NCBI GenBank assembly: GCA_001949185.1
Contig: BDGG01000007.1
Span: 1,632,730 to 1,696,729 of the forward strand
Direction of reading: 5' to 3'
DNA from: Ramazzottius varieornatus
Lineage: Eukaryota > Animalia > Tardigrada
DNA: 64,000 nt
The position numbers and the translations under genes are program-made. Of this stretch, positions 5,754-39,649 are shown piece after piece. Within the stretch, counting starts at the first letter, position 1; each line of letters begins with the position of its first letter. The notes beneath the pieces were generated by a model. It was not told the origin of the DNA and searched no databases. It saw only the letters and a program-made list of their open reading frames with translations.

Positions 5754-6745
5754 CCAAAGAGAATACGACATCCAAGTTTCATCTGTGTAAAGCCAGGTGG
5801 ATATAACGCTGTATTTGCTGACGTCATACGCCACTTACTTCCAGACCGCGGTACAGTCAGGTCCTGACTGTTTCCAGCCAACTGGGCGCTTCGTATGCGG
5901 TACTTCGTGCGATCAACTCGCAGCCAGCTGAAGTATACTATACCACATATCGGTCGGTAGGCCAAGCGAACACGACCACAGAAGACGCACACCCGGCAAT
6001 TAAGCTGTGACAGGAACACAGTAGCAACCTTTGCTACGCCAACCGGTTTTTCCTCCCTGTTGTTGACATCAAAAATACAAGAAGCACTTGGGTCGCCGTC
6101 GAGCAGGAAAGACGCTGCATTTCACCACAAGGCAGTCGACGCAGTCACCAGCGCGGATCAGCCCACACCGATAAGAGCTGGCCTTTCTTCTGCCGATACA
6201 AGACTGAAAGGCTCCTATAGCTTAGTTTGTACGTCAGATTGCCGCTTGGCCGCTGTTAGGAAGAAGAGCCAGCAATCACTACTTGGCAAAAGCAATCGAC
6301 TACAACGACGACGTCTTTCCGCTCTGTAGGGGCTGCCGCACTTTGGACAACGTCACCACTTGCTACTCTCCTCCGCAACGCAATCTCATTTTCCGTCGGC
6401 ACAGCGCAAGGAGGATGCGGCAGTTTCATCTTCATGAGTGGATGCTATATTAAACTGCTATCCAATTATTAAGGCTGGGAAGAATATCATCGATAGCACT
6501 GCTGACGTCGATCCCTTTCATCGCTCCAGGTACCAACGCTTGCTCAGTTTAACCCCGCCATTCACGCTGTCCATGATGGCCAATATTTGCCAACTACTTG
6601 TTTCTTCTGAGCAGCCAAGCGACACTCATCCTCTTGCAAACGCTGGCCTGTAACATCGCCATTATTATAATTGACATTCTATCGGCCGGCGGAATTGCCA
6701 CTTGTTCTTCTCGTTCTTGTAGGAAAGCCCTTCTACCGCTTGGAA

Positions 6746-8752
6746 ATGACTACAGAGACTATCGTACAGCAACGGACGGCCTCGACCACGCGGACGCTGA
6801 AGGAGAACGCACCCAAGGCTGCGGTGGAGAAGGAGAAGCCTGAAGAAGTCAAAAAGGCCGTGGCGGCGCTCAAGGCTGATCGCGATGTCGTACGCGGCTT
6901 TCCTGTCACGACGCCCTTGATTGCGGGTCTCAAGTGCTTCACATGGGAGGAAGTGGGCCAGCACAATAGCCAAGAAAGCTGCTGGTGCTACATTAACAAC
7001 AAAGTCTACGACATCACGACATGGCTGGACAGACACCCGGGCGGAAAGAAGGCGCGTCACCATACCCATTTTCAAAACTATACTCACAAAGCCACAAGAT
7101 ACTGTAGGTCTCTCTCTGTCTTCTTGCAGGTGCTACTGTTAGCGGCTGGGCGTGACTGCACGGACCTCTTCATATCGTACCATCCCTTCACGGAGAAGCC
7201 GGCCCAACTCTTGGCCAAATACTGCATCGGCCAAGTGACCACCACCGAGTTCCCCCAGTACCAGCCCGACTCGGGCTTTTACAAGGAAGTGCGTCAGAAG
7301 GTGGCTGAATACTTCAAGGAGAACAAGCTGGTCAGTAAAGACGCCAAGCCGGGTTTGGTCCGCTTAGGCTTCATACTGCTGGTTGCCGCCCTGGCTTACT
7401 CCTTACTAGTCTATGATGGGGGAAGTCTGTCCTGGAGCATCAAACTGCTAGCGGCCATTGTCTTTGGTGTAGCCCAGAGCCTGTGCCTTATGCACGCCAT
7501 GCATGACGCCAGCCATTCAGCTATAGGCCCCAACGAAACCTGGTGGAATTTTGTTGGCAAGTTTTGCCTGGACTGGTTTGCCGGAGCGTCCATAAACTCA
7601 TGGCACAACCAACACATTCTCGGTACGTGTCAAACAGGACGGCCAACGCACACAACACGACAGCTTTTTCGAGGTGGCGCACGCGTCCGCCCTACGGCAC
7701 GGGAAGTGTGCGCTACTTGGTACAAGAATCTTGTGGAGCTTGTTGCTCCACGTGGCGCACGGGCTCGGTGTTGCTGGCTGTAAACGTGCGCCGCTGGCGG
7801 AAATAAGTCTGGTCGAGTTGGTTCGCCGAGCGTTCAGTCATCTTCCCCGATAGTTGCTTCATTAAACCCAGGTTTGTCTTTTGCAGGTCACCATATTTAC
7901 ACCAATGTGATGGGTGTGGACCCAGACTTGCCGGTGGAGAAAGAAGGCGACATTCGACGAGTGTGTTGGCAGCAGAAATGGGCGCCAGCCTATCGTTTCC
8001 AGCACGTCTACCTGTGCGTGCTCTACGGCTTCCTGGCTCTCAAGTTTCGCATCCAAGACATTACGTCCACCATAATTGACCATTCCAACGGCAACATTCG
8101 TGTCAACGATCTGGGCTGGAAGGAAACTACCGGCCAAATTCTCAGCAAGGTATATCAGTGTATTCTCTGCCTTCCCTTGCGTTCTGGCAAAAACTGATCG
8201 TTCTTGTTATTCCAGCTCGTCTGGCTAAGCTGGCGCTTCATCCTTCCTGTGACTGTCTTCCACGTCGCTCCCCTTCCTTTCTTGTGCCTATTTCTCCTGA
8301 TAGAATTTGTGACGGGCTACTTTCTGACATTCAACTTCCAAGTCAGCCATATCAGTCCGTTGGCCGAGTTTCCCGATGGTCAGGGAGCTTCCTTTGTCAA
8401 CGAGTGGGCGCAGGTACGGTGTACGCGTACATGAGCATCAAACTCCATCTAGAACAGAGCTTGCTCATAAGCAGTTGCATTTCTCTAGTCCCAGCTGAAG
8501 ACGACGGTCGACTACGCCTATCATTCTTGGCTGACCACCTTTCTGACCGGCGCACTCAACTACCAGAGCGTCCACCATCTCTTCCCCTCTGTCAGCCAGT
8601 ACCACTACCCCGCCATCGCCCCCATCGTCAAACAAGTCGCCGAAAAGTGGCAAGTCCCCATCAATTACCTGGACACCTTCAGCGAGGCCGTCGCCATGCA
8701 TTTGAAGCACCTACAAGCCATGGGTGTTCACGAAGTCCTTCATCACCATTAA
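6746..8752 (+). CDS. Cytochrome b5-fused front-end (Delta5-type) fatty acid desaturase, copy 1, 5 coding exons
   Basis: HPGG heme motif; His boxes [22 protein letters not shown]; ends VLHHH-stop at 8750-8752. Confidence 0.92.
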
Positions 8753-10598
8753 AAAGCGCGCACAACGACTCTCTACACCAAGTGCCACACATGTACACTT
8801 GCTTGTCTCCATTCTTCCAGCAATCTCAAGGGAAACGAATGATTTGAACTATTCTTAATTTATCTGTCTACCCGAGATTGTCAATACCAAAAACATAAAC
8901 AAACAATTTCGCCGGTGAGTTTGGTGATGGCGCTTCCCTTGATTGCTGTTCGCTAAGACGTACCTCGGTGAATTAGCGTTCTAGGAGCAATACCGACTGG
9001 CGGCACTACCTAACCTCAAAACTTGTGTCCAGCGAGCGACGATTGCTTGTGACTGTCATGAGCGCTGTGCGGAGTTTGACGATGCTCGTTTGTATCAATA
9101 AAACAGCGAGCGGAAACGCCACCCCGAAGAATCCGATCCAATCGTCCGCATATACTCTGCGCAAAGACTACACGCTAACACAGCCGGGAAGTTTGTTGGC
9201 CCAAGAAGGCGGTTGTTATTCCTGCCAGGCTAGATAGATTACTACCGGACCAAAGTTCCCTGTCCCAAAAAGGCGCCTTGTTCTGATCGCCAGGGTAGGA
9301 AAATAGTAAGTCAATGTCGAGCCGCAACGCACAAGCGTTATCACAGTTTGAGCGACGGGCCGATCTTGACCGTCAACGCCATTCGCAAAACCACATCAGC
9401 AGACACTTACTTATCCAGGACAATTTTTACGTTGTTCTATCGCCAACGGCAGTGTGCCCTCACCGTCTTACGGCAGAGAGCAAAGTGCAGAAGAACAAAG
9501 GCCGGAAGTTCTGATATGGCCAACAGCTCCTGCACATCGCCAACCTGTCAAGCTGGTAGCCGAGAAGAACTTCCGACACCTCTCAGAGTGCTTCACCAGT
9601 TTCCGGGAAAGATGACACAGAACAAACTTGTCATTCTTATTCAAGGTCGCGACCGCTACACAAGCTTGTTTACAAGCCTCTATTGTCCGCCATGATTGTC
9701 TGCATGGGCCTCTTCCATCACATCGAAGACCCAAAGTCAACACACAGGTCCCCCTTTCCACAGAAAGAAAATCGATGAGTAGTTCCAGTGAAAACAACCT
9801 GATGGTTCGATCGACGCTAACTGCCCAACAAAGAGGCTCCACAGCAGGCAGCCTTCTCATCAACAAAACCATGTTATGCTTCATAGCCCTCAGCCAGCAC
9901 AAGTTCCCCTGAATTGAGCGGTTGTGGTCACAGCGGAGTTCCCTGCGATCGATACTATCACCAATCATGTCTATTTGTACAGCTGCCCAGCTACTGAGCC
10001 TGCGGCCATGCACAATGCGCCATCCTCCAAATGGATGCATACTTATTCAAGGTCTTCAATGCCGCCTCTGCGTGATGTACGCGGCCTTACACGTGCCGTC
10101 TTGCCAACGTGATGGCAGAGCCTTTCCACCGTCCAATATCCGGTTATAGTTAGTCATTATCTACTCGCTGCATCGTCACCCCATTTTGCGATGCCGCGTT
10201 AGCAGTACGTCGGCGCGTACCGCGAACTTGCTCTTACGTACGAGTAATGTGCCAGTCTTCGGCAGGGACCTATAGGCCTTGCAACAGCTGCAAGAGTTCC
10301 TGCCAAAGTGGTAGGCTGTTGGGCACTTGACAAGCGCCCTTTAGCCTTTTGCACTTCTATAATATTCGCGGCCACAGTGGTATCATGCACTACCTTTCGG
10401 CGAAACTTCTTTCAACAGTGCACTTTGCCGTCTGTGTACCGTGCCATTAACAACTTTGCAAGTCAGGTAACGTCTTGTTACTCACTTGCCAACGTGGTTT
10501 CTCGCCGGCTGCACCCTGGCAATGCCGCTCTGACTGTCTACTAGTGGACGTTGTTGTTTTCTTACCGGATTATCTGTGGATGCTGGTAAGGAGGCAGA

Positions 10599-13007
10599 AT
10601 GGCCCGTGACAGAAGCCCGGTGGCTGAAGGAGGAGGACCGGTCGAAGCCGCCATTTCCCACAAGCGGCGAAACAGCAATAGTAGCCAGGCTAACGGCAAG
10701 ACGACCGACTCATCGCGATCGCCATCCGCCTCGCCACCTTCGCCATCTCATCGCTCTTTGAGCCTTCCCGCAGCGACCACCGATGGGAAGATATCTGCCA
10801 AAAAAAAAGTTTCAGTTACCAAGCCAGGTATCAAAGAAGAGGTGGAAAGCGGAAGTGGTCATCCAGTGACGTCACCGCTGATTGCCGGCTTACCCTGCTA
10901 TACCTGGGAGGAAGTGGCCAAGCACAACACGCCGGCCAGCTGTTGGTGCTACATCGGCACCAAGGTTTACGACATCACTTCTTGGTTGGACCGCCATCCG
11001 GGCGGGCGTCAGGTAAGCTCGCCACAGCCTCAGCTCTCCGCTGCCTCTGTAATAGACAAACAATCAAGTTTGCCGTGCGGCAAGAACAAACTTACGAGTT
11101 AATTATAAGCGCCATCTGTTGCGTAACATTTCGATCAAAACCTACTGCAAAGCGAAATTAGAAACCTCTAAACGTAAAGCGCTATCGAACAGAAGATAGC
11201 TCTGTATCTGTAGGTGTTGCTGCTGTCTGCCGGGCGAGATTGTACTGACCTCTTCATATCGTACCATCCCTTCACGGAGAAGCCGGCCCAACTCTTGGCC
11301 AAATACTGCATCGGCCAAGTGACCACCACCGAGTTCCCCCAGTACCAGCCCGACTCGGGCTTTTACAAGGAAGTGCGTCAGAAGGTGGCTGAATACTTCA
11401 AGGAGAACAAGCTGGACAGCAAAGATGCCAAACCTGGACTGACGCGTCTGGCCATCATGATGCTGGTGGCGCTGACCAGCTACGGTCTGTTGATTTCCAG
11501 CGTTGCCAACCAGTCTTGCTGGGTCTGGCAAGTCCTGTTGGCCATGTTGTATGGCTGGGCACAAGCCTTACCTTTGCTGCACCTGATGCATGATGCCAGC
11601 CACTGCGCCATCGGCCACAGCGAACGCGGCTGGGCCATCATCGGCCGCTTCACTCTGGACTTTTTTGTGGGAGCTTCCATGAACTCTTGGCACAACCAGC
11701 ACATCCTGGGGCACCATGTTTACACAAACGTACTGGGCGTCGATCCGGATCTGCCGCAGGGCAAGACGGGCAGCTTCCGCCGCGTCTGTTCGCTGCAGCG
11801 ATGGCACTGGGCTTATCGGCTGCAACATCTATACCTGCTGGTCCTCTACGGCTTCACCGCCCTCAAGTTCCGCGTCAACGATATCACCGATCTTTTCATC
11901 TTCAAAACCGTGGTAAGTCCTCGATAGATGTGGCCAGAGAAACTTTTGTCGTCGCGCCCTGCAGAAGGAAAGCCGGAAATTATAGACAGAAATTCAAAAG
12001 CCCGGCCAACAGTAGCTGACTACCAAACACGACTTACCTGAGCCATTGCGGACCGTGAGACTGACTTGCGCGTCAAGGAGAATCGAGTGGCACACTGCGG
12101 ACAAGTCGATGAGGATGACCAGAATGTGAAAAAGACCGGGCGAGAACGAACGTTTTTTCCTGGATGAATTTGAAATAGTAATTATTTCGTTCGTAGAGAT
12201 GTGATTAAATCAAGTGAGAACCCATTTCCAATCAACCGTAAGATTTGAGCGAAACATGAGCGGTCAGTAGTGACGTACAATCCGTGACGTCACTGCGAAG
12301 CCAGTATTCGTCGCCTCCTGGCCGAAATGCGGAATAATAGGAGCTCGAGGAGGACTCGAGCGAATTACTGAAGATTTTATCATAGAAATATCAAATATGA
12401 AAGTTATGCTGATGAATCGTAGGGACCAATCCGGATGAACGACATCGACAACAAGGAAGTCTTGAGTCAAGTATGCAGCAAAGTCTTTTGGATATTGTGG
12501 CGCTTCGTTCTGCCCATCGCCTGCTTCGGAGCGGCTGCCGGCCGGTTCCTCCTTCTGCAGCTGGTGATTGAGTTCATCACGGGATACTACCTGAACTTTA
12601 GCTTCCAGATCAGCCACGTCAGTCCGTTGTGCGACTTCCCAGACGGCGAAAAGCCAGCGGTGGACGACGAATGGGCCTATTCGCAGCTAAAGGTAAATTC
12701 TCATCCCTTCTCTCCGTGACATCTTTCTTTCTAAGCTTGGTCTTCTTCTTTGTAGTCAACATTGGACTATGCCTACCACTCGAAGCTGACGACCTTCATG
12801 AACGGTGCTCTGAACTACCAGTCGGTCCATCACTTGTTCCCCTCTGTCTCCCAATACCACTATCCCGCGTTAGCGCCCATCATCAACAGCGTGGGCAGGA
12901 AGTACGGCATCAAAATCAACTATGTCAATACCTTTACCGAAGCCTTCAATCTCCATCTACAGCACCTGTATACCCTGGGTGTCGACTCTGTGTTCCACCA
13001 TCATTAA
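10599..13007 (+). CDS. Cytochrome b5-fused front-end (Delta5-type) fatty acid desaturase, copy 2, 4 coding exons
   Basis: [26 protein letters not shown]; introns about 11013-11213, 11913-12422, 12693-12755; ends VFHHH-stop. Confidence 0.92.
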
Positions 13008-13809: not shown

Positions 13810-14457
13810 CGCCAGACGTATTACAAGTAGACTCGCTAACAATATGTCCGGACCAGCATGTAGTAGATCAACCAGCATGGAACAATTCCATCAAGACGGT
13901 AGTAGGCCGATGTCAGGTCACATGGCGAGGTACGAGGATGTATGTGCGGATGCCGCCCTACCCCATTCAGCCGGCACAGATCCCCATCCTCTGCATCTGT
14001 CGTCGCGTGGATACCATGTACCCTCCATAAGCAACAGGCTGCTCCATCAAAGAAGACATGAATTCGCCATCACTTCAACCACATTTCGCTTGGTCCTTCT
14101 GTCAGATCGTAACCCCAAAGCGCAGTTCAACCATATCACACACTCGACAGATAACAATAAAAACGCCCAACTGAAAAGGCTACAAATCAGCTTAGGCAGA
14201 AAACACAGGAAACTAAAGGGGGAAAAGAATAAAGGCTATAAAGATAAAAAGCGAAGAAGTCAGCTCCATGATTAAAGTGTATTTGGTTACAATAAATATA
14301 CTTCCCGTTACAGTGTGATCATGGGCAAAGACGCCTCAAGTTGGAGGGCCTCAAACACTTTCAGAAGAGCAAAGTCCATCAAACACTATTTCAACAGAAT
14401 CACGTTTGGCAAGGGAGAAAGCACTAGTTTTTGAAGGGCAACAAGGTCCATCAGCCA

Positions 14458-17400
14458 TCACTGCTGCTTGACGTGGGGTTGTTGAGCGGGTGTGTTGTGA
14501 TGGCGCTCCTCAGCAAAGCGTAACATTTCCCCCAGCAAATTCTACGGGAAGGCAAGACACACATTGCGCCACCATCTTTGACTGCGCAAGTGTCAACCAA
14601 GTTACTTACATTATTGGTTTCACCGATGGAGCCGGCCAGTATCGACCACCACTGAGGATCGTACTGTTGAACCTCCATCACAACTTGGCGGAAGATGGCA
14701 AACTCGTCGACACTGTCCTGGTCAAGGGGCGTTGTCATCTGCTTCAACGTGTCCGACTGGTAACCTTCCGACTGCCAGTCTTCATCGTCGTCATCATAAT
14801 CTACAAGAACACCAAGCTTGAGTTTCTCTCATCTCCCCCCAGCGAGTCAGAATGTCACTAGGTCAGCCTACCTTCGTCTTCCGCGACGACTTCTCCGCCT
14901 ACTTTGCCGGCCGACGGTTCGTGGTCTTCTTCGTCGGTATGGACCACTTCCTCTTCTCCCTCTTCCTCGTCTTCCCATTCATCGTCACTGTCCGTTTCTT
15001 TGTGTGTATACATTCGTTTCAGCCCCTACTCCAAGGACAGCGCATTAGCTTGACGGACAATGACTGGAAAGAAGGGCCATCGTATACCTGGAAGAGGAGG
15101 AGACAGGAAGGCAGTAGCTTGGCCACGATGCTCTGTATGGCAAAGTGCGCTCTGAGGTGTTGGGGCAGACGCATGAAGATGGTCAGGCCCAGGACGGCCA
15201 TCTTCTTGTCATGCTTGCCAAACATGCAGTCAATCTCGTCCAGCCACATGGCCAGAAACTTCATCAGCAGCATACCCTCACCCTCCGTCTCGGCCCGCCA
15301 CTTGTTAAGAAAGTCCAAGGCCAGGGCCGTGTCGTAGTACAAGGCCGCCACTATCACCAGGATCAGCTGTGTCTTCAGCTCGGACATGAGCGGACTGGCC
15401 GGATACATCAGCTTCTGCAGCACCACCTGCATGATGGCCGGTACATACGGTGTTATCAGTCCTGCCAAACAAAAGGCATCAACAGCCTTGAACTACATGT
15501 CCAGCTAGCGAGAGATGCTGACATACCTTGATAGCTCAAGACCAGCACTTCCAACAGCTTGGCCGCTTGACACTGCCCATCTTCGCCCGCTTCGTCATTG
15601 CCCAAGACATACTCGCACATCTCGCACATGACTTGTAGGCGTCGTGGATCCGACAGCAACCCTTGAGCATCCCGTGTGGCGTAGTTGTACAAACACACAA
15701 TCTACAACGACAAAGGAAACAATTCGTCAAACACAAATCCATGTATAGCCTGGCAAGGTCCACAACGCACCATATCGGTAAAGTAGTCGATGCCGCTGTC
15801 TTTCTTCCTTAAAATCTGGGCGCAAATGTCCAGTCCCTGCCATAAGGCCGGCGATATCTGCTTGGAAGTTAGGGAAGTCAGGAGACCAAACATTTCTTCA
15901 AAGTACTCGGACAAGTCCTTCTCCAGGATCAGCTCGATGACTTGTATGATGATGGGTGCTAGCTGAGTATTCAGCTGCGGCTTCTCGATGGTGCAGTCGT
16001 TCAGCAGTTCCATCGTCTGTAGCACCGAAATACCCGTCAGCACCGAGCTCCGTTCTTCCTCCTCGGCTCCGCGCTTGTCCACGATGGTCCCGAAGGTGGC
16101 CAGCAGATGCTGCGCCAACTCGATAGCGCACACCGATACCTGACATCATATTACAGCGTTATATGACATGACAATATGACACAAGATCTTCGCCACATGA
16201 CATAACATAACAGTACTACTACAGGGTTTCGGCCCCTACCTCGTCAGGGAATTCGACGACAAAGGTCTGCAGAACTTCCGACAGTTCTTCATAGTTGGTA
16301 GTGTGGACTAGTTCCAGAGTGACGCGAAGGATGGCGATGGCGTGTGGACGGAGAAAGTCTTCGGCTGCCTTCTGGTTGTCCAGCACTTCGTTGAGCGTCA
16401 GCGCGGCCTCGACGCGGACCGGCAGATGCTCGGCGGGGTTCATCAGCAGCTGCCGCGCGCTTTCCAGCCCGATATAGAGGTGGTCTTTGTTCTTGTACTC
16501 CAGATAGGAGAACTGTCGAAAGAGCCAGACGGCACGGTAGCGAATGAACGGTTCGGGGTTGCGCATTTCCGGGTAACCGTGCACCACCAGCAACTGCTCA
16601 ACTTGGTCCTTATACGGCTTGCGTCGCATCAAGACGCGGCCCATGATTCCTGCAAGACAAAGCAGCATGATACTGGAACAATCGTGCGATAAAATAGGGT
16701 TAGCCAATGCCCAACGGTCACACCGAGAAAGTGAAGCGCGCCATCCTTCTCTCGCGCTCTGGCGGGATCGGGCGTCATTTGGCCCAGCGTGAAGGTCAGA
16801 ATGTCCGGGATGAGGTTGGGATGCTTCTTGCAGAGCGTGTGAAGGAGGTACTGTGCAGCGGCTTCAGCGGACATGAACTCTGCATGCATGTCACTTCGTT
16901 CGAGGATCCAGTCGATGGGATTGTCCTCCCACATTTCCTTATCTTCCTCTTTGAAGCACATGATGGGGAAGATGACGCGCGATAGCAGGTCGTGCGCGTG
17001 CGGCTTGATCAGCTTCCAACATGATGGAACCTGCAGAAAATAAATAACCCACATGAAACATTGACAAAGGAAATACATGACCGGAAGTGAGATGGTCGTA
17101 CTTTCAAGGCTTGTCGAACATAGGCTAAACTTTGCTGTAAACACCGCTGACTGATGTAGGTGCCGCGGATGTACGAGTCGAGGAGGACAAAGACGGACTG
17201 GAGAATGACTTTGGCCAGTTTGGCCACGAAAAAGTTGGCAAAGGCCAGGTAATCTTTCTTAACATCCTTGGGCGAGCCGTAGCGATCAAAAATCTTGGCA
17301 AAGATGTGCAGACACCACTTCTTGCTCTTCCACCAGATCGTGTCCTGGCGCTCGTCCTCCTCCAGCTCGTTCACTTTCGGCGGTACCGGCGAGTCAAAGA

Positions 17401-18277
17401 CTCTCAGAATCGTCATGATCCACTGTTCGGTCATTTCGAAATTTAATATCTTGAGGGGAAAGTCGAACTGGATGTAACAGTAAAAGACTTTTAATATCGT
17501 CTTAATCAACAGCATCGACTGCTCCGATGTGTCGCCCGTCAGTTCATGCAGTCTCCGTAGCAGTAAGGGCTGAAGAAACTTCATGGCTTCATCTGCAAAA
17601 AAGACGAAAGAATTTGTTGATCCGTTGTCTGTTTAACAGAATAATATGACGGACAGGGTCGTGCTGTCAGCCCCATCGAGAGGGCTTAAAGACAACCTTG
17701 TTGCACCGGAAAGAGGTGCCAACACGGCTTTTGGGCACTCACCGATAGCTGAACGGTCATCCGAGACGCGATATTCAAAGGCATGAATCAAGCGGTACAG
17801 GGCAATCAAGGCACCGTACCACAGTTCGTGTTGCGGCGACGCCAGCACGAGATTGACACGCTGCACAATGTCCGACCATCGTCCGGGAAAATCGGCCTTA
17901 CAAATGGTCTCCAGTGCCATGGCTAGTTGTACGCGTAACACTTCCGGCGAGTCGATGACCGTCTCCAGGATTTTGTCACGAAGAATAGAACGGTCCTGTT
18001 CGTGAATGTTGAAGGGTATGGGTTCACCTCGCTCTCGAGCCTTTTGCGTCTCTCCTTCCGTCACGTCGTCCCAGTGATGGATAATGTAATTCTTCAGGTA
18101 TACTACAGCTGCTGTCCGTGAGGGTAATTCGGCTTTGCCATCGCGAACGTGCTCCAGCAACATTGGTCCAAAGTTGATGATTTTGCGCATTTGATTCAGC
18201 TGCTCTTCTGCTGCTTTCCGATGGACCGGATCCAGCGTCGACGCGCACAAGTAGGCGATGTTCTCCATTCCCACCAT
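14458..18277 (-). CDS. IPO7: Importin-7/8 family nuclear import receptor, multi-exon
   Basis: IBN_N start (STLDPVHRKAAEEQL), DFPGRW, WWKSKKW, DRYGSP, REKDGAL, acidic loop and TTPLD...VDEF near the C-terminus. Confidence 0.92.
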
Positions 18278-19230
18278 TCTACTCTCGTCTCGTTATTCCT
18301 CTAGGAAGTAGCACAATAGACGGCAAACGAAGAAGCAAAGCCGCTGTACGGAATCAACAAAATGGTTCTGACTTCTGAATTTGAAATCGGCGAAAATGGC
18401 AAGTGGCAATTGGAATTTGGAATTCTAATAGCACTGCAGCAAAGTGGTTACACGCAGAGAATCAATCAAACTTCCAACCGGAAGTGACGCCCCACTACTT
18501 AACAGGAGCGGTCCCAGCGGATCCGGTCCCTCCGAACAGGTTAAACTACCTGGTGCTACTCCAGTCTCCAACCTCAAGACTGGCATTCCATAACAGAAAC
18601 CACGGACGCATCACGAGACAACGCAAACTGGGGCGAAGGCTATCTGACCTTACCCGGTACCACTTTCTGTTGGAGAGCCCGGTTGACTTCGGACTTCCTG
18701 GTCTTCGGCCGCGTACGGGAGAAGAAGCAAGAAAAAGCGATCATGCCCCTCCTATGTGTCATATGATACCTGGTGCTTGTGGATCGGACCCGGCAGAAGA
18801 ACAGGAGAACAGGTATTAAAGTAGTCTAGTTCCAAGTTTACTGCAGAATTTCTCGCACGGTTTGAAACTTACTGACCGTTTTAAAAAAAGGAACACAGGA
18901 AGCAATGATAAATCAGTTCCTCTCGAACTATGTCGTTCAGCAGATAACGCGCAATGAGCGCTGAAAACTTTTCGAACAAAATTCCCAAGTTCCACGGAGT
19001 CGCCGGCTCCTCTATGTTAAGCGTCGAGCTGGCATTTTATGGCAAAGTTTCTTCGCTCAATATACGACGTCCCTCTCTGACATCTTTGCGCCGGCGGTTC
19101 TCAAACCTACGAGCAGCAAGTCCTCCTCAATCGAAATATCAAACAAGTGTTCAATTTTCAGGTGTTTTCGTCTCGAACCTACCACTTAAGGCAGCGCCTG
19201 ATATCCAGACAGGCTTCTCGAGCGATCACT

Positions 19231-20619
19231 TCAAAATCGTCTTTCGACGGAATGGTTGACTTCTCGTACCATTTGTCTAAAAGAACATTCCGTTAGTCTC
19301 ACATGGCGGAAGGCCTTCAGATCGATAGTGAAAAGCTGATCGAGAAGCGTACTGAGAATGGTCAATTGACCCTTTCGCAGCACATAACGCGGCAGCTTTT
19401 CTTTGGGTTGTGGGGGTTCAAGCAGCGGCGTCTCCGGTGGCTCCTCCAGGTCCCCACGGAGAATACGTCGTTTCAAGTCATCTACCTCCGCCTTCAGTGC
19501 TGCTCGTCTTTTCTCGAACCTGTAAGCATCAGACGAAAAGATAACACTCCCGCGTTCGAGCTGTGCAAAGCACGTCGCAAAGATACAACAAAAGGGTAGT
19601 TCTGTAATTGTGTGATCAATTGTCGAGAAAGAAAAATTAATCAAACATGGAGTGACGATAAAACAACCTCTTACCATTTGTACACCTTGTATTCCTTGAC
19701 CTGCAAGTGCTCGGCCAATTGTTTCACCTTCTCTTTGGAAGGTATCTTCGCTTGCTCAAACTCTGCCTCGAGAAACTGGAGCTGGCCGGGCTGAAAACGG
19801 ACACGAGGTACACGTTCCGGTGGCTTCCAGTCAGTGGGTCTCGACAGCTCTTCCAGAGCAATTAATTCAGTGACCGTCTTTTCCGAAGGGAAAGGCAGAG
19901 TCCTTAGCAGTAGCTTGTACGCGGCACGGCTCTTTGCGTACACCTGCGTGCAGAAGAATTTGAAGTCCATAGAATACTTGTAAGGTGCCAGTTTGTTCTT
20001 CTTTGAAACCTACAACAAGACCGAAATACACAATCATTAACACCGATGATCCAGATACCCCTCATTCATTCGCCCATGACGTAAAGAGATCATTGTCACC
20101 AAATAGAGGCAACCATGACGTCATGCGCGCAGGGTTAAGTATCCTTACAAGTGCCTGCCTGCGTACCTGTACCAACTCCTGGACGAAAGGGGGGACGGCA
20201 TCGCGGTCAGCTTCCAGTTCTTGCACCCGTCTTTCCAGCTTCTTGATGGTCGCCCTCAGCGCTAAGATTTCCTCCCTGTTCTTTTGCTGCTTTGTATGTG
20301 CTCTTTTGCAGTTCGATATCGCGGTTTTACATCGTTTATTGTGACTTTCCACTTCCACCTTCTGGACAACCACAAACAGACGCTTTTGTGCAGGTGTTCT
20401 AGCTTCCATTCCCAGGCGGCCGTCGGGAAAGAGCGTGAGCGGAAGTGGCTGGGTGAATATGGCCGAACTGGATGAAGTGCCATCTGCAATGTCATGGGAA
20501 AGCATCGGTGTATTACCATCACCATTCTGCGTGATCACTGGCTCTCCTTCCGCAGTGTTCTCCTCATCTTCTTCGCACTCCGTCAATTCACTTCCGTCTT
20601 GCTCCTCATCCATATCCAT
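19231..20619 (-). CDS. Chimeric protein: acidic N-terminus, coiled coil, P-element-transposase-like HTH segment and divergent homeodomain; 3' end uncertain
   Basis: Exons 20619-20167, 20009-19675, 19519-onward join in frame; KYSMDFKFFCTQVYAKSRAAYKLLLRTLPFPSEKTV then RVPRVRFQPGQLQFLEAEFEQAKIPSKEKVKQLAEHLQVKEYKVYKWFEKRRAALK. Confidence 0.78.
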
Positions 20620-23097
20620 GTTGGTCCTTTTCGTCCTTCAGCAGAATCCTGCAAGTCGAACAGAAAACAGGATAATAATTAATTAATTATGCAGGGAAGA
20701 CGACTCACGAGTCGCGACTGTGGTCGTCAATCAAAAATTCAAATTGATGGTCGGGCGAGTTGATTGACAGAAGCACTCGTTCAACCAAAGTATAAAACTA
20801 CTCGTACAAGAACGACTTTTTGTTATCACGTAGATTTTTTACCGCTGTCGCCAGATTACTAGGTACCTCAGTTTTAATCGGGTTCCCGTGAAACTTTACG
20901 AAATGCCGGAGAGCCGGATGTACTTCCTACGTCGTAGCGGCGCAGCAAATTTCCGTACGGCCTTCGTCGGTTTTCCCCGGGACAATTCTATGCCGATAAT
21001 TTGTTCCAACACGTTAAAGTGCCGAATGCGCTGCTCCGCCTTCGTTCACAGAATGGCTCACCTTCGAAGCTCTGATCTGTCGTCGACCATTCTTCTCGCA
21101 GCAGGTTCACCTTTAACTTTCCAGGCCTATAACTGGTATAACATCGCTTCACCTGAAAGACTCTTCAAGCCGTACACGTGTACGCATCGAAGCTTCAAAG
21201 TCAATCGAGACTACGAATAATAACCGGTCTACGATCAACCATTTTAGAGATATAGACAAAAGCCGGTGGATCTTGACGGATTGTGGCTCGTGCTCCGGGA
21301 TCAATTTCACGGTGATCGCTTGGCAAGCAGCCTCCCAGAGGCATATTGATGCAGTAAAGTAAGCAAGGGCTGCAACTACAAGGAAGAAAAGACTGAGGGA
21401 CACATATCACACATTTATCTGCCTCACGGCCACTTTGCCTAATTAGTACATATTGTCTCCACTGTCCCCTGAGATCACATTTGTCTTGAGAGATGGCTAG
21501 CTTGATAGCATATATAACAGCAAACCTGACCGTTGGCGCGCAATCGATGCAGAATATTTTTCAACTTCCCGTCCCAGTGGAGCCCACAAACTGCAGATAC
21601 TGCAACACTGCAAAGTTCTTCCCCGTGTGTTTAATACTCCATGCTCATCGCCACCGTCTCTTCATCTGATAACAATTTCTATCGATTGTGGAACTTTTGT
21701 GCCGAAGAAGGATCAAAGGCCAGGATAGCTTCAGTCCTTTGGTAGCTGGTCATCGCGTCTTCTAGATCTGTAAGTATATTACCTATCAAATTATTGCAGT
21801 CACCGAGCCGACCAAATCTAGTGGAAAAATCGCTACAAACCACGCTACTTTAGCCTACTCGTGAAATAATCTAGAATTTCTCGTAAGAAAGGTCATTACT
21901 GTATTCCCTCCAAAGTTCTTCGAATCACGTGACTGTCGTGGTAAATATCATCCGGCGGGGAACAGAAAGTATCTATACCTTCAATCAAAGACTGCTCCCC
22001 AGTCAAGTGTAATGATGGGCGACAATCAAACAATCAGCGATACCAGTGCGGGTGTAATTTACTGGCTTAATGACGTAATTCGTAGAACTATCGAGGGAAT
22101 ACAGTAACTTTACTGACATCAGTAACATGTAAAAACGAGTAAACTGTGCCGCCACCTATAGATGAAATGGATCTTGTGACGGAAGCAGTAAAAGTCTAAG
22201 ACTCTAAGCGGCTTGGTGATGAAGGAGGCTCGTCAAAGAACCGTGAATTCAATTTGCCGGAGGTCCATTTGCAGTTTCGAAACTGCCGATTGGTTACGTC
22301 ACCGGAACTGCAGTGCAGCCATCGTCAAGCCTTACTTTGTTGGCGAATTCTTCTGATATGCATGTCGCTACTTCTTGCCTTTCAACTTGCTTGATGTTTC
22401 CTCAAACGTGACGGAATCTGTTGACCAAGACAAGTTCAATCGTCAGTGGTGGTTGACGACACGAGAGGGCATCATAACTTTGCTGGTTGATGGAGGAGGA
22501 CGACAAAGCATGAGGCATAATTTGCGTGTTACCAATTTATCTTCTGCGCGAAGCAGAGGAGATATCGGAGCCCGAAGTTGAACGATGCTTGACTAAACAA
22601 GTTTCATCTTTCTCCAGTCTAGTGCCTTTACGCCGTTTACGGCTCTCCTTCTGTCTTCATCGTCCCCTTCAAGGCCGGCCTGGCTGTGGATGCTAAAGTC
22701 ACTGGAGACGTTATCTTTGAGCGTTGGCTGACGTCAAGGTTTACGCATTGGAAACTCTGGTCAATCGATACTTTCTCTTCGCTTTGCCGTCCACTTTTTT
22801 GGCCGTTCGTTGAGTCTATTCTGTTCTGTCGAGAGGGGAGGATGTGTGGGTAAAGCTCGTACAAACACTGCACTTACGCAAAAGACAACCAAGATTCATC
22901 CTGTTTCTGCTTGTGGCCGAGATTGCAGACTTGCCGTGGCGACGCTCCCTTTCGCTACAGCATGTAAAGTTCAAGCTCGTCCCAGCTAATTGAATTGCCT
23001 GCATTCTTATTGACCTCCTCGTGCTATAGGTGCTTGATAAGGATGATCACAAGTTGGACGTACCTTCGTTAATCTCAGCAGGAGCGAAGAACGGAAG

Positions 23098-24943
23098 ATG
23101 GTCGTCCTGTCGAAGCAGACGCAAGACTGGCTGCAGCACGTTACCGCTTCCGACATTAAAGTCTGCGTCCTCGGCCTCACTCGTAAGTCGCCTCTCTCAG
23201 CAGTCAGCACGCTGGACGGACATCCCGACCAGATCGTGAATCTTCTAATGGTAGATGAGTGCAACAAAATCAACAGGAAGTCATCAGTCTAAACTAATTA
23301 CGAAGAATTTGTGTGTGCACTATGTAATGTAGATATCGTGTCATGTCATATCATATGACAATATCATCCGTAATAGGCCGCTGCAGTTGGAACGAAGGAC
23401 TTTTCTTAGAGTTCGAAACAGCGATTGCTGGGCTGGGCTTGAAGGAAGATGGATGGTTTCGCGGAATTTTGATGAACATGTTTGTGTGTTTGCAGTGACG
23501 ACAGACTCGCCGAAGCTGCTGTGGTTGACGGTGACATGCGGTCTGGTTTCTGTTGGTTTGATTAGTGGGCGGTCGCGGTCGTTTCTGCTGAAAGTGTGGC
23601 GCCAGACTTGTGCCTACGTTTCCCGGCTCTTGTACCCTCCCTTACCCACAGAGCTGCCGCCGCCGACAGCTTGTGCAAACAGGCAAAGAGGCAGTACCAG
23701 CGGCCTTCCATTGCTGAAAATGGGTCAAAAGATGACAGTGATAACCTCGGTGCAGCTCGATACCGACCCCGAAGTCGACCAAATCCTCATGTCTTCATAC
23801 GAAGTGGTCGACCGACCGCGCCTTCGCCCTGCCATGAAGGACGCTCAGACCTCGCCGCTGACCATTCAGCATCTGGACGTGGGCATCAACACCATCGTCT
23901 CCCGTAAGAGCCGCGGCTGTTCGCCCCTGTCCGTCGGCGAGCTCAGCGACCACGACGAACTGCTGCTCATCTTCGGCGAGGCAAGTGGCAACGGGGAAGG
24001 AGGAATCAATGGAGGGACCAGCGGCAGCTTCTTGGACGGCGGACAGGGCGACCATTCGGAGCTGTACGAAAAGCTGGAGAAGATTCAGAAGCAGCTGCAG
24101 GAAGCCAACCAGGAGATGGACCAGACCATGAACCGGATGGCCGAACTGTCCCAGAAGCACTTTTACGCCCAGGAATCTCCATGTAAGTCTCCTTTGTTGC
24201 TTTGTCTGCCAAGTAGTTGAGCAATGTCCTTGCCCTTAGACATGCCGGCTGAAGAAGAGGCCTCTTCGCAGCTGGACTATGGACATGTGCTGGACAAGCT
24301 TCGGGCCATACAAGGCGGCGCATGGGAGCGGCAGCCAGCAGCCCAGTCTTCTGCCGATTCGGCCCACAACGGCCTGATCTGGGAGGACGAGTTTGCTGGT
24401 CCGCCACTGGGAACAAACTGTGCCATCAAGCCTGTGCGTTACTCACTCGACAACCTGACACTGTGGCAGTCGGAGCTAGGTCTCTACTCCAACCTGCACA
24501 CACCTCACAACCGCTATAGCCTTCCTCCTCAATCATCCTTTAACTCTACCCCCATGCCCAAGAACCTTTTCCCCACACCAGTTTGCACTCCTAGCCCCAT
24601 CTTGTCACCGGTTCAGCCTGCTGCACATAGCAATAATAATAAGCACTGTCTGCAGTGCCTGTTGGAAGCCGGTGACTTTGACAAGGCCACAGAGAAGAGT
24701 GAGGGCAAGCCAGAGCGGCCTTTATCGGCGCCCGGTCGCAGCTCCTACAGCAGCTTGAGCAGCACTTGCTGCGGCGCCAGTGTCTCCTGTGATTGCTGCA
24801 TGTCTTCCGCCAGCTCTCCCCTACACTGTCCTTCCCATGGCCACACTTGTCGCAGTGTCCCTCTTGGCTCACCTCCTGCTCACCGTTCGCCCTTGCATGA
24901 TCGTGTACCCAAAATGAAGCAGCCGCAGCAGCAACCAGCGTGA
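23098..24943 (+). CDS. Unknown protein with N-terminal hydrophobic segment, coiled coil and Ser/Pro/Cys-rich tail, 3 exons
   Basis: ORFs 23098, 23387 and 24224 join through GT-AG introns; LLWLTVTCGLVSVGLI; ELYEKLEKIQKQLQEANQEMDQTMNRMAEL. Confidence 0.6.
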
Positions 24944-35603: not shown

Positions 35604-35938
35604 TATAGAAGGCTCGGCGAAGCTAAAATTAGCCGTTCCTAGTCGTGGCTAAAAATATTTTAGCCGCGGCTAAAGCAGCTAAAGTACTTTTAGCCACGGC
35701 TAAAATGTATTGTGCGTTNNNNNNNNNNNNNNNNNNNNNNNNNNNNNNNNNNNNNNNNNNNNNNNNNNATTGTGCGTTCATTGATTTATTGATGTTGAGT
35801 CGGCTAAAATAGTTTTGGCATCAATAAAAAATTCGAGCGCACAATACATTCTAGCCGTGGCTAAAAGTATTTTAGCTGCTTTAGCCGCGGCTGAGAACGG
35901 CTAAAACGGCTTATTTTAGCTTCGCCGAGCCTTCTATA
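35604..35938. mobile_element. Non-autonomous TIR element with 8-bp TSD, superfamily uncertain (hAT or P-like)
   Basis: TIR TATAGAAGGCTCGGCGAAGCTAAAAT at both ends; flanks CATGCTGC / CATGGTGC; internal TAGCCG(C/T)GGCTAAA-type repeats. Confidence 0.8.
35719..35768. other. Assembly gap (50 N)
   Basis: N run with the same ATTGTGCGTT on both sides, suggesting overlapping contig ends. Confidence 0.95.
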
Positions 35939-36139: not shown

Positions 36140-39100
36140 TATTGATGTTCTACTCGGGCAAAATGGCATCTAATATACTATTACTTACTATTCGCCATCA
36201 GTTTGAGTTCTACTTAATTGCTACTTAATATAGTAAAACTTCCGCCTGATCTAATTTACTTTACTATAGTAACTTCCGTTTAATCTCCGTAGTAAAATAT
36301 ATTTTACTATTGAAAGCAAAGTTTCAGATCTTAGTAACAAGCCGCACTGGGTAACAAATTACGAACCGCTTACAAATGTTACCGGGAGAACAGAGACCTT
36401 AGTCATCGAGATCGGGCAAATGCTCTGTATTTCGCAAAGAAAGTATTTTTCTTTCGAGATTGTGGCCGGCTAGTCTGTTTCCTTTCCCCCTTGTTGCAGC
36501 TGCGCCAATGGAAAAAACTCTTTCCGGTGCACTCGAAGCAGCCGGTATGGCTAGAATGTCCAAAGCCACACGGCTCAGTAGAGGGAACTTTCCCGCATTC
36601 TGTATCCAGAAGAGCTCTGGATTGTCATCAGTATTATCTTCCGTACTAGCAGGTAGACTGATATAAGTTTGGATTTCCAAATCAAACGGCGAATTATGAG
36701 GTGCGACCTCCAAACTTGCAGCGACGAAAAAGTCCAAGTCATCGTCAGTGTTGAACTTGGAGGTGACATTCGGATCAGCAGGTTCAGGGAGTATGTCTGA
36801 GCGAAGAAAGTTTAGAATTTAGCGATAAACAAATTAAACTAATCAGCTGAACGGTCGAACGTGTACCTGGAATGTTTTTTTCGTACCAATCACTGCTCTT
36901 TAGTGCGAGCCATCTGGAAGCAAGGCTCGCCACCCGATGTGGCAGAGTGAGGCGCAGTTTCTTGTGAAGAAAGGTGCTCGCAATGTACACTGCATCAAAC
37001 TTCGGATCACGTTCATTGATCACGTATCCCAACACGCGAGATAATTCAGATTCCATCGCCAATATGACCTACAAAATACAAAAGCCTTTGCAACTTAACG
37101 AAAAGAATCGAAACGAGTATAAAACGTTAATACCAAAAACAGATCACACAGCGCACAAGAACACCTACTTGATCGAACGGGTTATCGAGGTGGAAGCTAG
37201 AGAAGTCCAGCTTTGATAATGCATCACGGATGCATTCCAAACGTCGAACCAGCCCGTTGATGTAGAAGTGGACCCGATGAATAGTTGCCTCCTTATCAGC
37301 GCTCAGCTTATCCGTAACCTGCAATCGGTAAGAAACATCGGCATACAAATTCGATTGTAAATGTCTAGCCACAGCTGTACTGTGACACGTACAGTGTTAA
37401 ATTTGTCCAATAGTTTTATTATATATCGGATGATAACCCATTCTCCCGATGTAAGACCTGGAATCTTCAGGTGCCGTGCCATGATTTCTTTTACGGAATC
37501 TTGTACTAGATCCAGGCGCTTAAGAAACAGCAAAGTTGAATTCCATCGAGTTGAGACATCAGCAATCAAAGTCAGGTTCGTGGCTTTGATGAGTTCGCCG
37601 GTAGCAACGGTGGACAATCTGAATGTCTTCACTATGACTCGGGCTTTCCTGATGATGGGCTTCAGCGTTTCGTCTTTCTCAAATACACGAACAGCCGTCT
37701 GCAAACGATGGATAGTACAGCTGTGGCGCTTAATTCTGAAAAGCGAAAAAAATACGTTATCATTCAGTTGGTGAAGTAGGATCACATGCCTAACTTCTAG
37801 ATGTTTATAAGATTTATGGCTCTGAAATGGAAAACATTACCTTCCGTCGAACTCCCTGTCACACTGCTCTTCAAACTGCATGTATTCGTCAACTTCTTCT
37901 ACTACATTGGCCTCTTCTGTGTCATCAGAGGTCACTGTTACACCCTCTTCATCCTCGTCCGATTCGTTATGACTGTCTGAACCATTTGAGTCAACGAAGG
38001 CTTTGAAAGCGGTTACCATGTTCGATCCGTTGTCGGTCACTATGGCGGATATCTTGGAAGGTGCAATATCCCATTCAGCCAGAATATCCATTGTAAATTT
38101 AAACAGCCGAGCAGCAGTGTGTGGAGGTGGAAAGGTGCGACAAGCCAGTGTCATTCCTCGCATAACTTTGGAGTGAGGATCGTACACGCGAGCAGTCATT
38201 CCAAGTTTGGATTCAGTCATTCCACGCTTCGTCCAAATATCTGTAATGAAATAAGTACACGTTAAACATTAACGAATGTTAATTTTGTCAAATGAACCTT
38301 CGAAGGAGAACAGTCCTACCTGCTGACAAGGAAATCTTTCGAGCACGACGCAGTACAAATTTCATGTTGGTCAGCAGCTGCTTGTAGACTCTGTCCATCT
38401 CGGTATTCACAGCTTTTCTACCGAACGCAGGCGATCGAGGGTCATGTTTCATGAAGACACGTTGAGTCGTAGGATTGGCACAGAGTGTTGGCGTCGCGGT
38501 GGTACGTAAACACCACAATGCACGTTCGCGTAGGACAGCTCGATATATGCAATAAGGAACGAAATGCGATGAATAGATTAATTATCAGTCACCAGCAAGC
38601 AAAAGAAAAATGAAATTAATCTTACTTGAAACTTCCCTCCTCGTACGGATGTGAAGACTCAAAGCTGAGTTTAGGCTGGATCATCGTCACGCTTGATTCC
38701 TGCTGCTTGCTTTTCTTGACATCTTTGCGACATTTCTCCTGCTCTTCATATTTTCCATAAGCCTGAGGATGATGATTTCTGAGGTGAGCCACAGCATTTC
38801 CATTGTTACCGGCAGGCTTGACTTCATGTAGGCAGTATTGGCATGTACGACTACCTATCTCGACATCTTCGGTGTAGTGTTGCCATACTGCAGATGCTCT
38901 CTTTGGACCACCAAGTCGTTTGCGCTTCACGTTAGCAACCGAAGATGACGTTGATGAGCACTGAGGACTAGGAACAGGCGGATCATCATCCGCAGAGTCC
39001 GAAACGTCATCATCAGTAATGTTGATCACTGCTGGGCTGACTACGGCTTCCTTGGTGGGAGCAGAAAATTTTCCATTCCCGGCTGGAGGCTTCTTCAGAA

Positions 39101-39649
39101 CGCGTTGTGTCTTCCCTTTGGTCGGTAAAGGCATGGCTGATGAGTAGCTATGGGATAGGTCCTACCTAATCATAAGCAAACTAGAAGGACGCAAAAAAAC
39201 TAGCCGATCGTTCCATATTGAGCTTTCAGCAAAACACAAATAATTCGAATCTCCGCCATCACGCACCGGCAAACCGTCAATCCAGCTCGTCTAAGGAGTA
39301 CAGAGTATGTAGGCGCATGGCCATCTTGTGTTAGCCCTACGAAGCCAACTTCTGCTGACATAGGGGCGGGATATGCGGTGTGCGCTGTCTTCTGGGCGTT
39401 GCCCCAGATATCAGGGCGCCTACTATAGTACGTCAGTGCGCGCTTCAGACGTATTATACTATATTTTAATATCGTAAACGCTTGATCGAATGTTACTATA
39501 ATATCTCGGTTTCCGTTGTGACTTACTTTACTATTAATTTTCTGTGTCGCAGTCCAGTGCATTCACTTGATATTACTTACTATAGTATATGCTAAAAGCA
39601 TCTATTTTCACATACTTTAATATACTTTTACTATAGTAGAACATCACTA
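36140..39649 (-). mobile_element. Full-length hAT DNA transposon (3510 bp)
   Basis: 15-bp TIRs TATTGATGTTCTACT / AGTAGAACATCACTA (1 mismatch); perfect 8-bp TSD CCACAGGG at 36132-36139 and 39650-39657; subterminal TTACTAT repeats. Confidence 0.95.
36399..39134 (-). CDS. hAT transposase with BED zinc finger, 7 exons; intron 1 acceptor non-canonical, possibly disabled
   Basis: BED SAVWQHY..CQYC..HLRNHH; catalytic motifs DIW, TDNGSN, CTIH, TRWNS, ERVFS; C-terminal dimerisation domain FWIQNAGKFPLLSRVALDILAIPA. Confidence 0.9.

Follow-up and report, generated by a model that had tools for sequence, protein, structure and literature searches.

The gene under study lies on the minus strand of a 64-kb window (the whole stretch of DNA analysed here). 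It comprises six exons and encodes a protein of 372 residues (CDS 20619-19037, in the spliced frame read from transcript contigs). From the N- to the C-terminus, the protein displays an acidic head, a coiled coil, a P-element-type helix-turn-helix (HTH), homeodomain 1, and homeodomain 2. Its gene structure was read from contigs of four sequencing runs from four studies, aligned to positions 18300-21800. These runs carry no RNA record; their status as transcript data was deduced from their spliced GT-AG joints, which are present in the neighbouring genes too. All five introns are of the GT...AG type on the minus strand and are skipped by the contigs: intron 20649-20866 (junction 20647/20866) in two of the four runs, introns 20010-20166, 19520-19674, and 19277-19352 in all four, and intron 19107-19182 in three. 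The transposase-derived and homeodomain parts are joined in frame within one spliced transcript, the HTH exon and the exons of homeodomain 2 being found together on single contigs of runs X1, X2, and X7. Of four further runs, X3 displays the four coding junctions and X21 the last one, while X22 has none and X16 yields one unspliced contig of 922 nt. No sequence difference on the homeobox gene is found among those listed for the aligned runs. A preliminary description of this locus had proposed canonical introns, as observed here, and a spliced transcript is now documented in contigs from the four studies. That description, however, ended the gene at 19231 by reading through the third coding intron: introns 19277-19352 and 19107-19182 are spliced out, and the stop codon lies at 19039-19037. 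The earlier model would encode 358 residues and lack homeodomain 2.

Exon 1 (20867-21335) is 5' non-coding and is joined to exon 2 in two of the four runs. It overlaps by ~30 nt (about 21307-21335) the 5' end of a divergent plus-strand neighbour. Contigs of X2, X7, and X3 continue from exon 2 into intron 1 (20649-20866), up to 20774, 20706, and 20700, respectively, which suggests a second start or a partial retention in the 5' UTR. Exon 2 (20167-20648) contains the ATG at 20619, the acidic head (14 Asp or Glu among the first 27 residues), the coiled coil, and the start of a transposase-like helix. An in-frame stop immediately precedes this ATG, so a THAP exon cannot be added from the 5' exon. 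Exon 3 (19675-20009) runs uninterrupted from the HTH through a linker of 14 residues into homeodomain 1, which it encodes as far as Trp48. Exon 4 (19353-19519) holds the end of homeodomain 1, a 27-residue proline-rich linker, and the start of homeodomain 2. For both exons 3 and 4, the two flanking junctions are seen in all four runs. Exon 5 (19183-19276) has its upstream junction in four of four runs and its downstream junction in three, plus X3 and X21. Exon 6 (18728-19106), delineated by spliced contigs whose ends vary from 18728 to 18916, encodes helix 3 of homeodomain 2, followed by the stop codon and the 3' UTR.

The window is compact and intron-rich, with about 50% GC. A scan of 149 of its 156 ORFs of at least 105 residues reveals genes for fatty-acid desaturases, diphthamide synthesis, RING, and RhoGEF/RasGEF proteins. 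Directly downstream of the homeobox gene, a gene of the importin-beta family (14000-18400, minus strand; IBN_N and Cse1 domains), which we take to be importin-7-like, possesses many short introns confirmed by contigs and is usable as a synteny anchor. Its first transcript pieces are located some 330-500 bp from the 3' end of the homeobox gene. On the other side, the divergent neighbour (21307-21769 and 23496 onward, plus strand) has a first intron of 1.7 kb, with GT at 21770 and AG before 23496, and its ORFs display weak coiled-coil Pfam matches only. This intron houses a MITE (21896-22107) of about 210 bp with 59-nt imperfect terminal inverted repeats (TIRs) and TA on either side, probably of the Tc1/mariner type, with many diverged copies in the run contigs. 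Further away, a tandem pair of cytochrome b5 / fatty-acid desaturase genes is found at 6671-7780 and 10590-11924 (plus strand). Pieces of hAT-type transposase lie at 36402-39161 (minus strand), near a 50-N gap (35719-35768); they include a dimerisation domain at the C-terminus (E 7e-14) and a weakly matched BED finger (E 0.008), and belong either to an element or to a domesticated ZBED-like gene.

Two homeodomains

Homeodomain 1 (residues 216-275; 19483-19817, minus strand) is recognized by Pfam (PF00046, E 1.6e-9). As the preliminary description had stated, it shares an exon (19675-20009) with the HTH-like segment. Homeodomain 2 (residues 303-362; 19070-19401, minus strand), encoded across three exons and detected by profile search, had been overlooked in that description, which counted a single homeodomain. 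With a profile built from 17 homeodomains of proteins P0001-P0003, the spliced protein displays two domains, at 51.1 and 29.5 bits; its C-terminal part scores 33.3 bits, against 6.7 for the best of 2000 shuffles. Both domains exhibit the homeodomain signature (L16, F/Y20, W48, F49, R5, and R53; PMC4901127, section 5). Residues at the diagnostic positions are R5, L16, F20, W48, F49, E50, K51, and R53 in homeodomain 1, and R5, L16, Y20, W48, F49, E50, N51, and R53 in homeodomain 2. The Glu50 and Lys51 previously read in helix 3 of homeodomain 1 are thus confirmed, this helix being assembled by splicing inside Trp48.

The two homeodomains share 20 of 60 residues, which does not exceed what each has in common with the best unrelated fetched domain (20 and 18). 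Both, however, have Glu at position 50, and in both the Trp48 codon is split by a phase-2 intron, which suggests an internal duplication. Glu50 is absent from every class in Table 1 of PMC4901127 (section 5). Asn51 establishes a key adenine contact (PMC11832328), making homeodomain 2 the likelier base reader. The unusual DNA specificity proposed earlier therefore depends on Glu50 in both domains and on Lys51 in homeodomain 1, homeodomain 2 having kept Asn51. A Lys51 homeodomain may also occur in the ZEB family, for which a text search gave no confirmation. Among solved structures, the best matches of the homeodomains are faint and point to no single class: engrailed (E 0.0012), ATBF1 (E 0.2), and POU6F1 (E 0.36). 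The ESM Atlas returned no usable match for homeodomain 1. No paired domain (PAX) is matched by Pfam, and neither homeodomain has Ser50, both having Glu50.

P-type transposase ancestry of the HTH segment

The segment resembling P-element/THAP9 transposases covers residues 144-201 (19860-20190, minus strand). It includes a pre-HTH helix (residues 144-160), with a phase-0 intron after residue 151, and the HTH itself (residues 161-201). Pfam PF12017 does not match any piece of the protein, up to E 10, and a single-sequence search of the PDB with the HTH-homeodomain exon returned homeodomains only, plus one chance match. With residues 1-60 of this exon and no motif supplied, the ESM Atlas placed PF12017 clusters on top (0.89, just below the 0.9 line; 190 of 256 features), a lead only. 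The ten best family matches all agree, and PF12017 is carried by 38% of the members of the top cluster.

A metagenome scan with the motif of the preliminary description retrieved 11 loci. Five were transposase-like and were scanned, four of them carrying PF12017; the other six were dropped as chance matches. P-like transposases of animal type are found at L001:297-1142, L003:157-987, L007:218-1495, and L009:39-752, the first with THAP, coil, and HTH within one frame. The segment shares 19 of 48 residues with a THAP-bearing metagenome transposase. Since selection by motif is circular, a second search used the catalytic (RNase H) region of one locus as sole query. It gave 303 matches, of which the best 120 were used; 70 had the anchor and enough upstream sequence, and 59 were left after removal of near-duplicates. 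The profile of these 59 transposases scores 24.9 bits on residues 144-201, whereas 2000 whole-protein shuffles reach 9.1 at most; it thereby provides the match to the P-transposase HTH that the preliminary description had set as a test. Among 1404 ORFs of the window, the HTH exon is its sole match (E 2e-6), the next best reaching 4.8 bits. A profile from the 32 segments less than 45% identical to the seed gives 25.4 bits, against 3.7 for the best shuffle, and none of the 17 homeodomains exceeds 0.6 bits with this profile. Furthermore, hhalign relates the segment to the P-like family (probability 82%, E 1e-5), and tblastn finds 43% identity over 46 residues (E 1.5e-6). The profile match spans the intron after residue 151. 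Shuffles reach the real score in none of 500 cases for the HTH core (161-201), in 5 of 500 for the helix (144-160), and in 50 of 500 for the coiled coil. The family itself, as a 34-sequence alignment, matches the Drosophila P transposase (PDB ID: 6P5A) with E 1e-70; the matched stretch coincides with the HTH of this structure, which is formed by residues 151-200 (PMC10824691) and binds the inner half of the terminal inverted repeats (PMC7776569). At the level of sequence comparison, these results establish the transposase ancestry of residues 144-201. Among viral contigs, motif scans retrieved 0 and 5 loci, and none of these proved transposase-like when read.

Structurally, the HTH piece is modelled from its single sequence as three helices (pLDDT 73). 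The single-sequence models (pLDDT 51 and 73) have no informative fold match, with a best Z of about 4, and 6P5A is not among the listed rows of the structure searches.

A PGF motif follows the HTH proline by 16 residues in all 46 family segments having both motifs. In the 372-residue protein, a proline (Pro209) is found 17 residues past the HTH proline; the similarity ends there, and homeodomain 1 begins seven residues further, in the same exon. The junction between HTH and homeodomain therefore coincides with the expected start of the catalytic part.

The coiled coil claimed earlier is seen at residues 114-137 (20209-20280, minus strand), as a leucine-zipper-like heptad pattern (I118/L121/I125/L128/V132/L135). 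Its distance to the HTH equals that of the Drosophila P zipper, with a similar register, as judged by eye on the 6P5A alignment: I112-L126, F140, and P187 of the P transposase correspond to I118-V132, F145, and P192. By its shuffles, it is not distinguishable from a generic coil; Pfam gives generic coiled-coil matches alone, below cut-off, and hhalign of the coiled-coil exon alone found nothing. The P-type zipper plus HTH of the preliminary description is thus retained for the HTH, whereas for the coiled coil the likeness to transposases is one of position only. A bZIP identity was rejected, as no Pfam match was obtained. In the transposase, the coiled coil is reported to be dispensable for oligomers in cells (preprint 10.1101/2020.10.06.328815).

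A probable host-transposase fusion and its rivals

A chimeric origin of the gene is very probable. Judged from its domains, a transcription-factor role is likely, and it is an even question whether the HTH still contributes to DNA binding. Taken as a whole, the locus reads, with fair likelihood, as an expressed six-exon gene for a domesticated host-transposase fusion, probably a dimeric nuclear DNA-binding transcription factor. The domesticated transposon-homeobox chimera of the preliminary description is supported in this respect by the HTH profile match, the spliced transcript, and the absence of TIRs and diverged copies. Such a gene could have arisen by fusion of a homeobox to the N-terminal region of a P-like transposase (probably the zipper with the HTH), at the point where the catalytic domain begins. 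The homeobox would then have been duplicated together with its Trp48 intron, and the THAP and RNase H parts would have been lost or never captured. In the protein, the zipper would pair two chains, so that as many as six helix-turn-helix units would be present in the dimer. Homeodomain 2 (Arg5, Asn51, Arg53) would be the principal base-specific reader, its contact shifted by Glu50, while homeodomain 1 (Lys51) and the HTH might add backbone or secondary base contacts and lengthen the site, comparably to the paired domain of Pax proteins. Added domains are known to extend the site in PRD, POU, and CUT proteins (PMC4901127, section 24). The acidic head may serve as an activation surface.

The transposase piece could instead be real but vestigial, a spacer or folding unit in a divergent double-homeodomain factor that does not use the HTH on DNA. 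The HTH has indeed diverged: 8 of its 23 strongly conserved columns are identical, helix 1 is altered (A/L/S replaced), and an invariant Leu is now Val197. Identities to the family are 14 of 37 at best (median 9 of 37), against a median of 19 between pairs of members. At the start of the third helix, Glu194 stands for Drosophila Arg189 (by eye), in a column that is variable in the family. Such an HTH may be decaying. However, its frame is open, its hydrophobic core and its Y-x-x-L and P-S-x-x-T signatures are kept, seven further columns show conservative changes, and K168, S178, Y182, L185, P192, S193, and T196, all of invariant type, are retained. Moreover, the GC3 of the HTH segment (0.62) is close to that of the homeodomains (0.58-0.60), suggesting that it has been there for long, in which time a piece without use would be expected to erode. 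A vestigial HTH is considered unlikely. By its divergence, the segment is either old or derived from an unsampled clade.

The preliminary description had left the choice between a transcription factor and a transposon repressor. As a host-encoded repressor of P-like elements, comparable to KP or the 66 kDa protein, the product would poison multimers via its zipper or occupy element ends via its HTH. Truncated P transposases that keep the N-terminal part do repress (PMC7776569), and a coil at the zipper position and the HTH are kept here while the catalytic core is gone. The 66 kDa repressor, however, has a THAP domain (PMC7776569), and its absence here weakens this option. In addition, the HTH differs widely from the transposases sampled, two homeodomains are not accounted for by such a role, and no P-like element lies within the 64-kb window. 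A repressor is thus quite improbable, and the transcription factor is favoured.

Still more improbable is that the locus represents a P-like element, mobile now or in the past, with an acquired host homeobox, despite the transposase-derived sequence and the failure to find an orthologue in the collections searched. Exon searches gave three generic homeodomain proteins, from a collection whose coverage of this lineage is doubtful, as none of six window ORFs is in it, and a metagenome scan with the HTH-homeodomain exon gave 273 pattern matches, none confirmed. Against mobility, the profile of the 120 transposases matches the HTH and nothing else in the window, with no second copy there and no catalytic remnant in its six frames (other rows at most 0.2 bits). 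No RNase H DDE core with GTP-binding insertion is found in the window, and no THAP finger in exon 2 (Pfam) or, at E 1, in six upstream ORFs. Between 18300-19040 and 20620-23500, no inverted repeats with a 7-9 bp target duplication flank the coding region. The absence of THAP, catalytic core, and flanking repeats was already part of the preliminary description, for which many TIR-flanked copies would have meant a simple transposon. The MITE at 21896-22107 was rejected as an element end, given its TA flanks and its position in the neighbour's intron. The neighbours leave no space for an element, and the five introns are spliced. Finally, at 80% likeness in four runs, no diverged contigs on the gene are among those listed, whereas the nearby MITE drew dozens of differences in the same comparison of listed contigs.

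That a small unit of three helices came to resemble the P-type HTH by chance or convergence is equally hard to credit: Pfam silence, the missing 6P5A row, an Atlas score under its line, and a seed located with a query-like motif are outweighed by shuffles that never approach the real score (0 of 500 for 161-201, 0 of 2000 for the whole protein), by the persistence of the result without the clade of the seed, and by the motif-free retrieval of the same family by the Atlas.

Known systems and significance

The closest known design is that of the Pax / PRD genes, in which a paired domain derived from a Tc1-like transposase is joined to a homeodomain (PMC4901127). In both cases, a single host protein carries a transposase-derived HTH ahead of a homeodomain, and the catalytic core is gone. 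In contrast to Pax, the donor here belongs to the P/THAP9 superfamily instead of Tc1/mariner, a single HTH with a coiled coil replaces PAI and RED, there are two homeodomains, position 50 is Glu instead of Ser, and the distribution is apparently limited to a lineage instead of being pan-animal. The protein resembles Drosophila P transposase and THAP9 in its layout, a coiled coil followed by a PF12017-type HTH, with the spacing judged equal by eye. Unlike P transposase, THAP9, KP, and the 66 kDa protein, it has no THAP, RNase H, GTP-binding, or C-terminal domain and no terminal repeats; homeodomains take the place of the catalytic part.

Other fusions differ further. KRABINER, SETMAR, and PGBD3-CSB are tetrapod fusions formed by splicing, mostly with KRAB, SET, or SCAN (bioRxiv 10.1101/2020.05.07.082677), whereas HTH and homeodomain 1 are here in one exon; the string 'homeo' does not occur in the main text of that preprint. 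CEH-91 of C. elegans is, likewise, a divergent multi-homeodomain protein of one lineage with a P-element-related domain, predicted as a THAP beside a HOCHOB double homeodomain, the THAP being possibly fortuitous according to its authors (PMC4448998). It carries a THAP finger and no HTH, and the cysteine linker of HOCHOB contrasts with the cysteine-free 27-residue linker found here. Tandem homeodomains are also present in the ZF class, DVE, and DUX (PMC4901127, sections 5 and 24; PMC4448998), and an oligomerising zipper beside a homeodomain in plant HD-ZIP proteins (PMC4901127, PMC4448998). Here, however, there are no zinc fingers, and the zipper precedes the HTH instead of following the homeodomain.

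Full-text searches, covering few subscription papers, found no report of a protein that combines homeodomains with a P-type HTH, in agreement with the preliminary description, which knew of no family with this layout. In the portions available, texts having both terms mention each separately, and 'homeo' is absent from the main texts of PMC10027918 and PMC12062965. A supplement of the latter screens 10 million proteins for co-occurring domains and may bear on novelty. None of 123 fetched proteins harbors HTH and homeodomain together. In the literature consulted, transposase capture is already known, with Pax as the transposase-homeodomain case and CEH-91 as a doubtful THAP-homeodomain case. 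What appears to be new, as far as domain comparison indicates, is a Pax-like capture from the P-type transposase family, with two homeodomains. A bolder proposal, which we hold only tentatively and rate well below an even chance, is a lineage-limited re-invention of the Pax design, in which a dimeric zipper-HTH with Glu50 homeodomains would read sites from P-like element ends co-opted as a regulatory network.

The transposase origin of Pax is considered too old for stepwise tracing (bioRxiv 10.1101/2020.05.07.082677). A second transposase-homeodomain protein, from another superfamily and apparently one lineage, would allow tests of whether a captured HTH still reads transposon-derived sites, and of how such an HTH combines with homeodomains. 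The case further means that the P-type HTH, and not THAP alone, can be domesticated by itself, and that Pfam-based surveys miss such cases, Pfam seeing here just the homeodomain. Finally, the homeodomain recognition code could be probed here on natural variants, Glu50 being paired with Asn51 in one domain and with Lys51 in the other.
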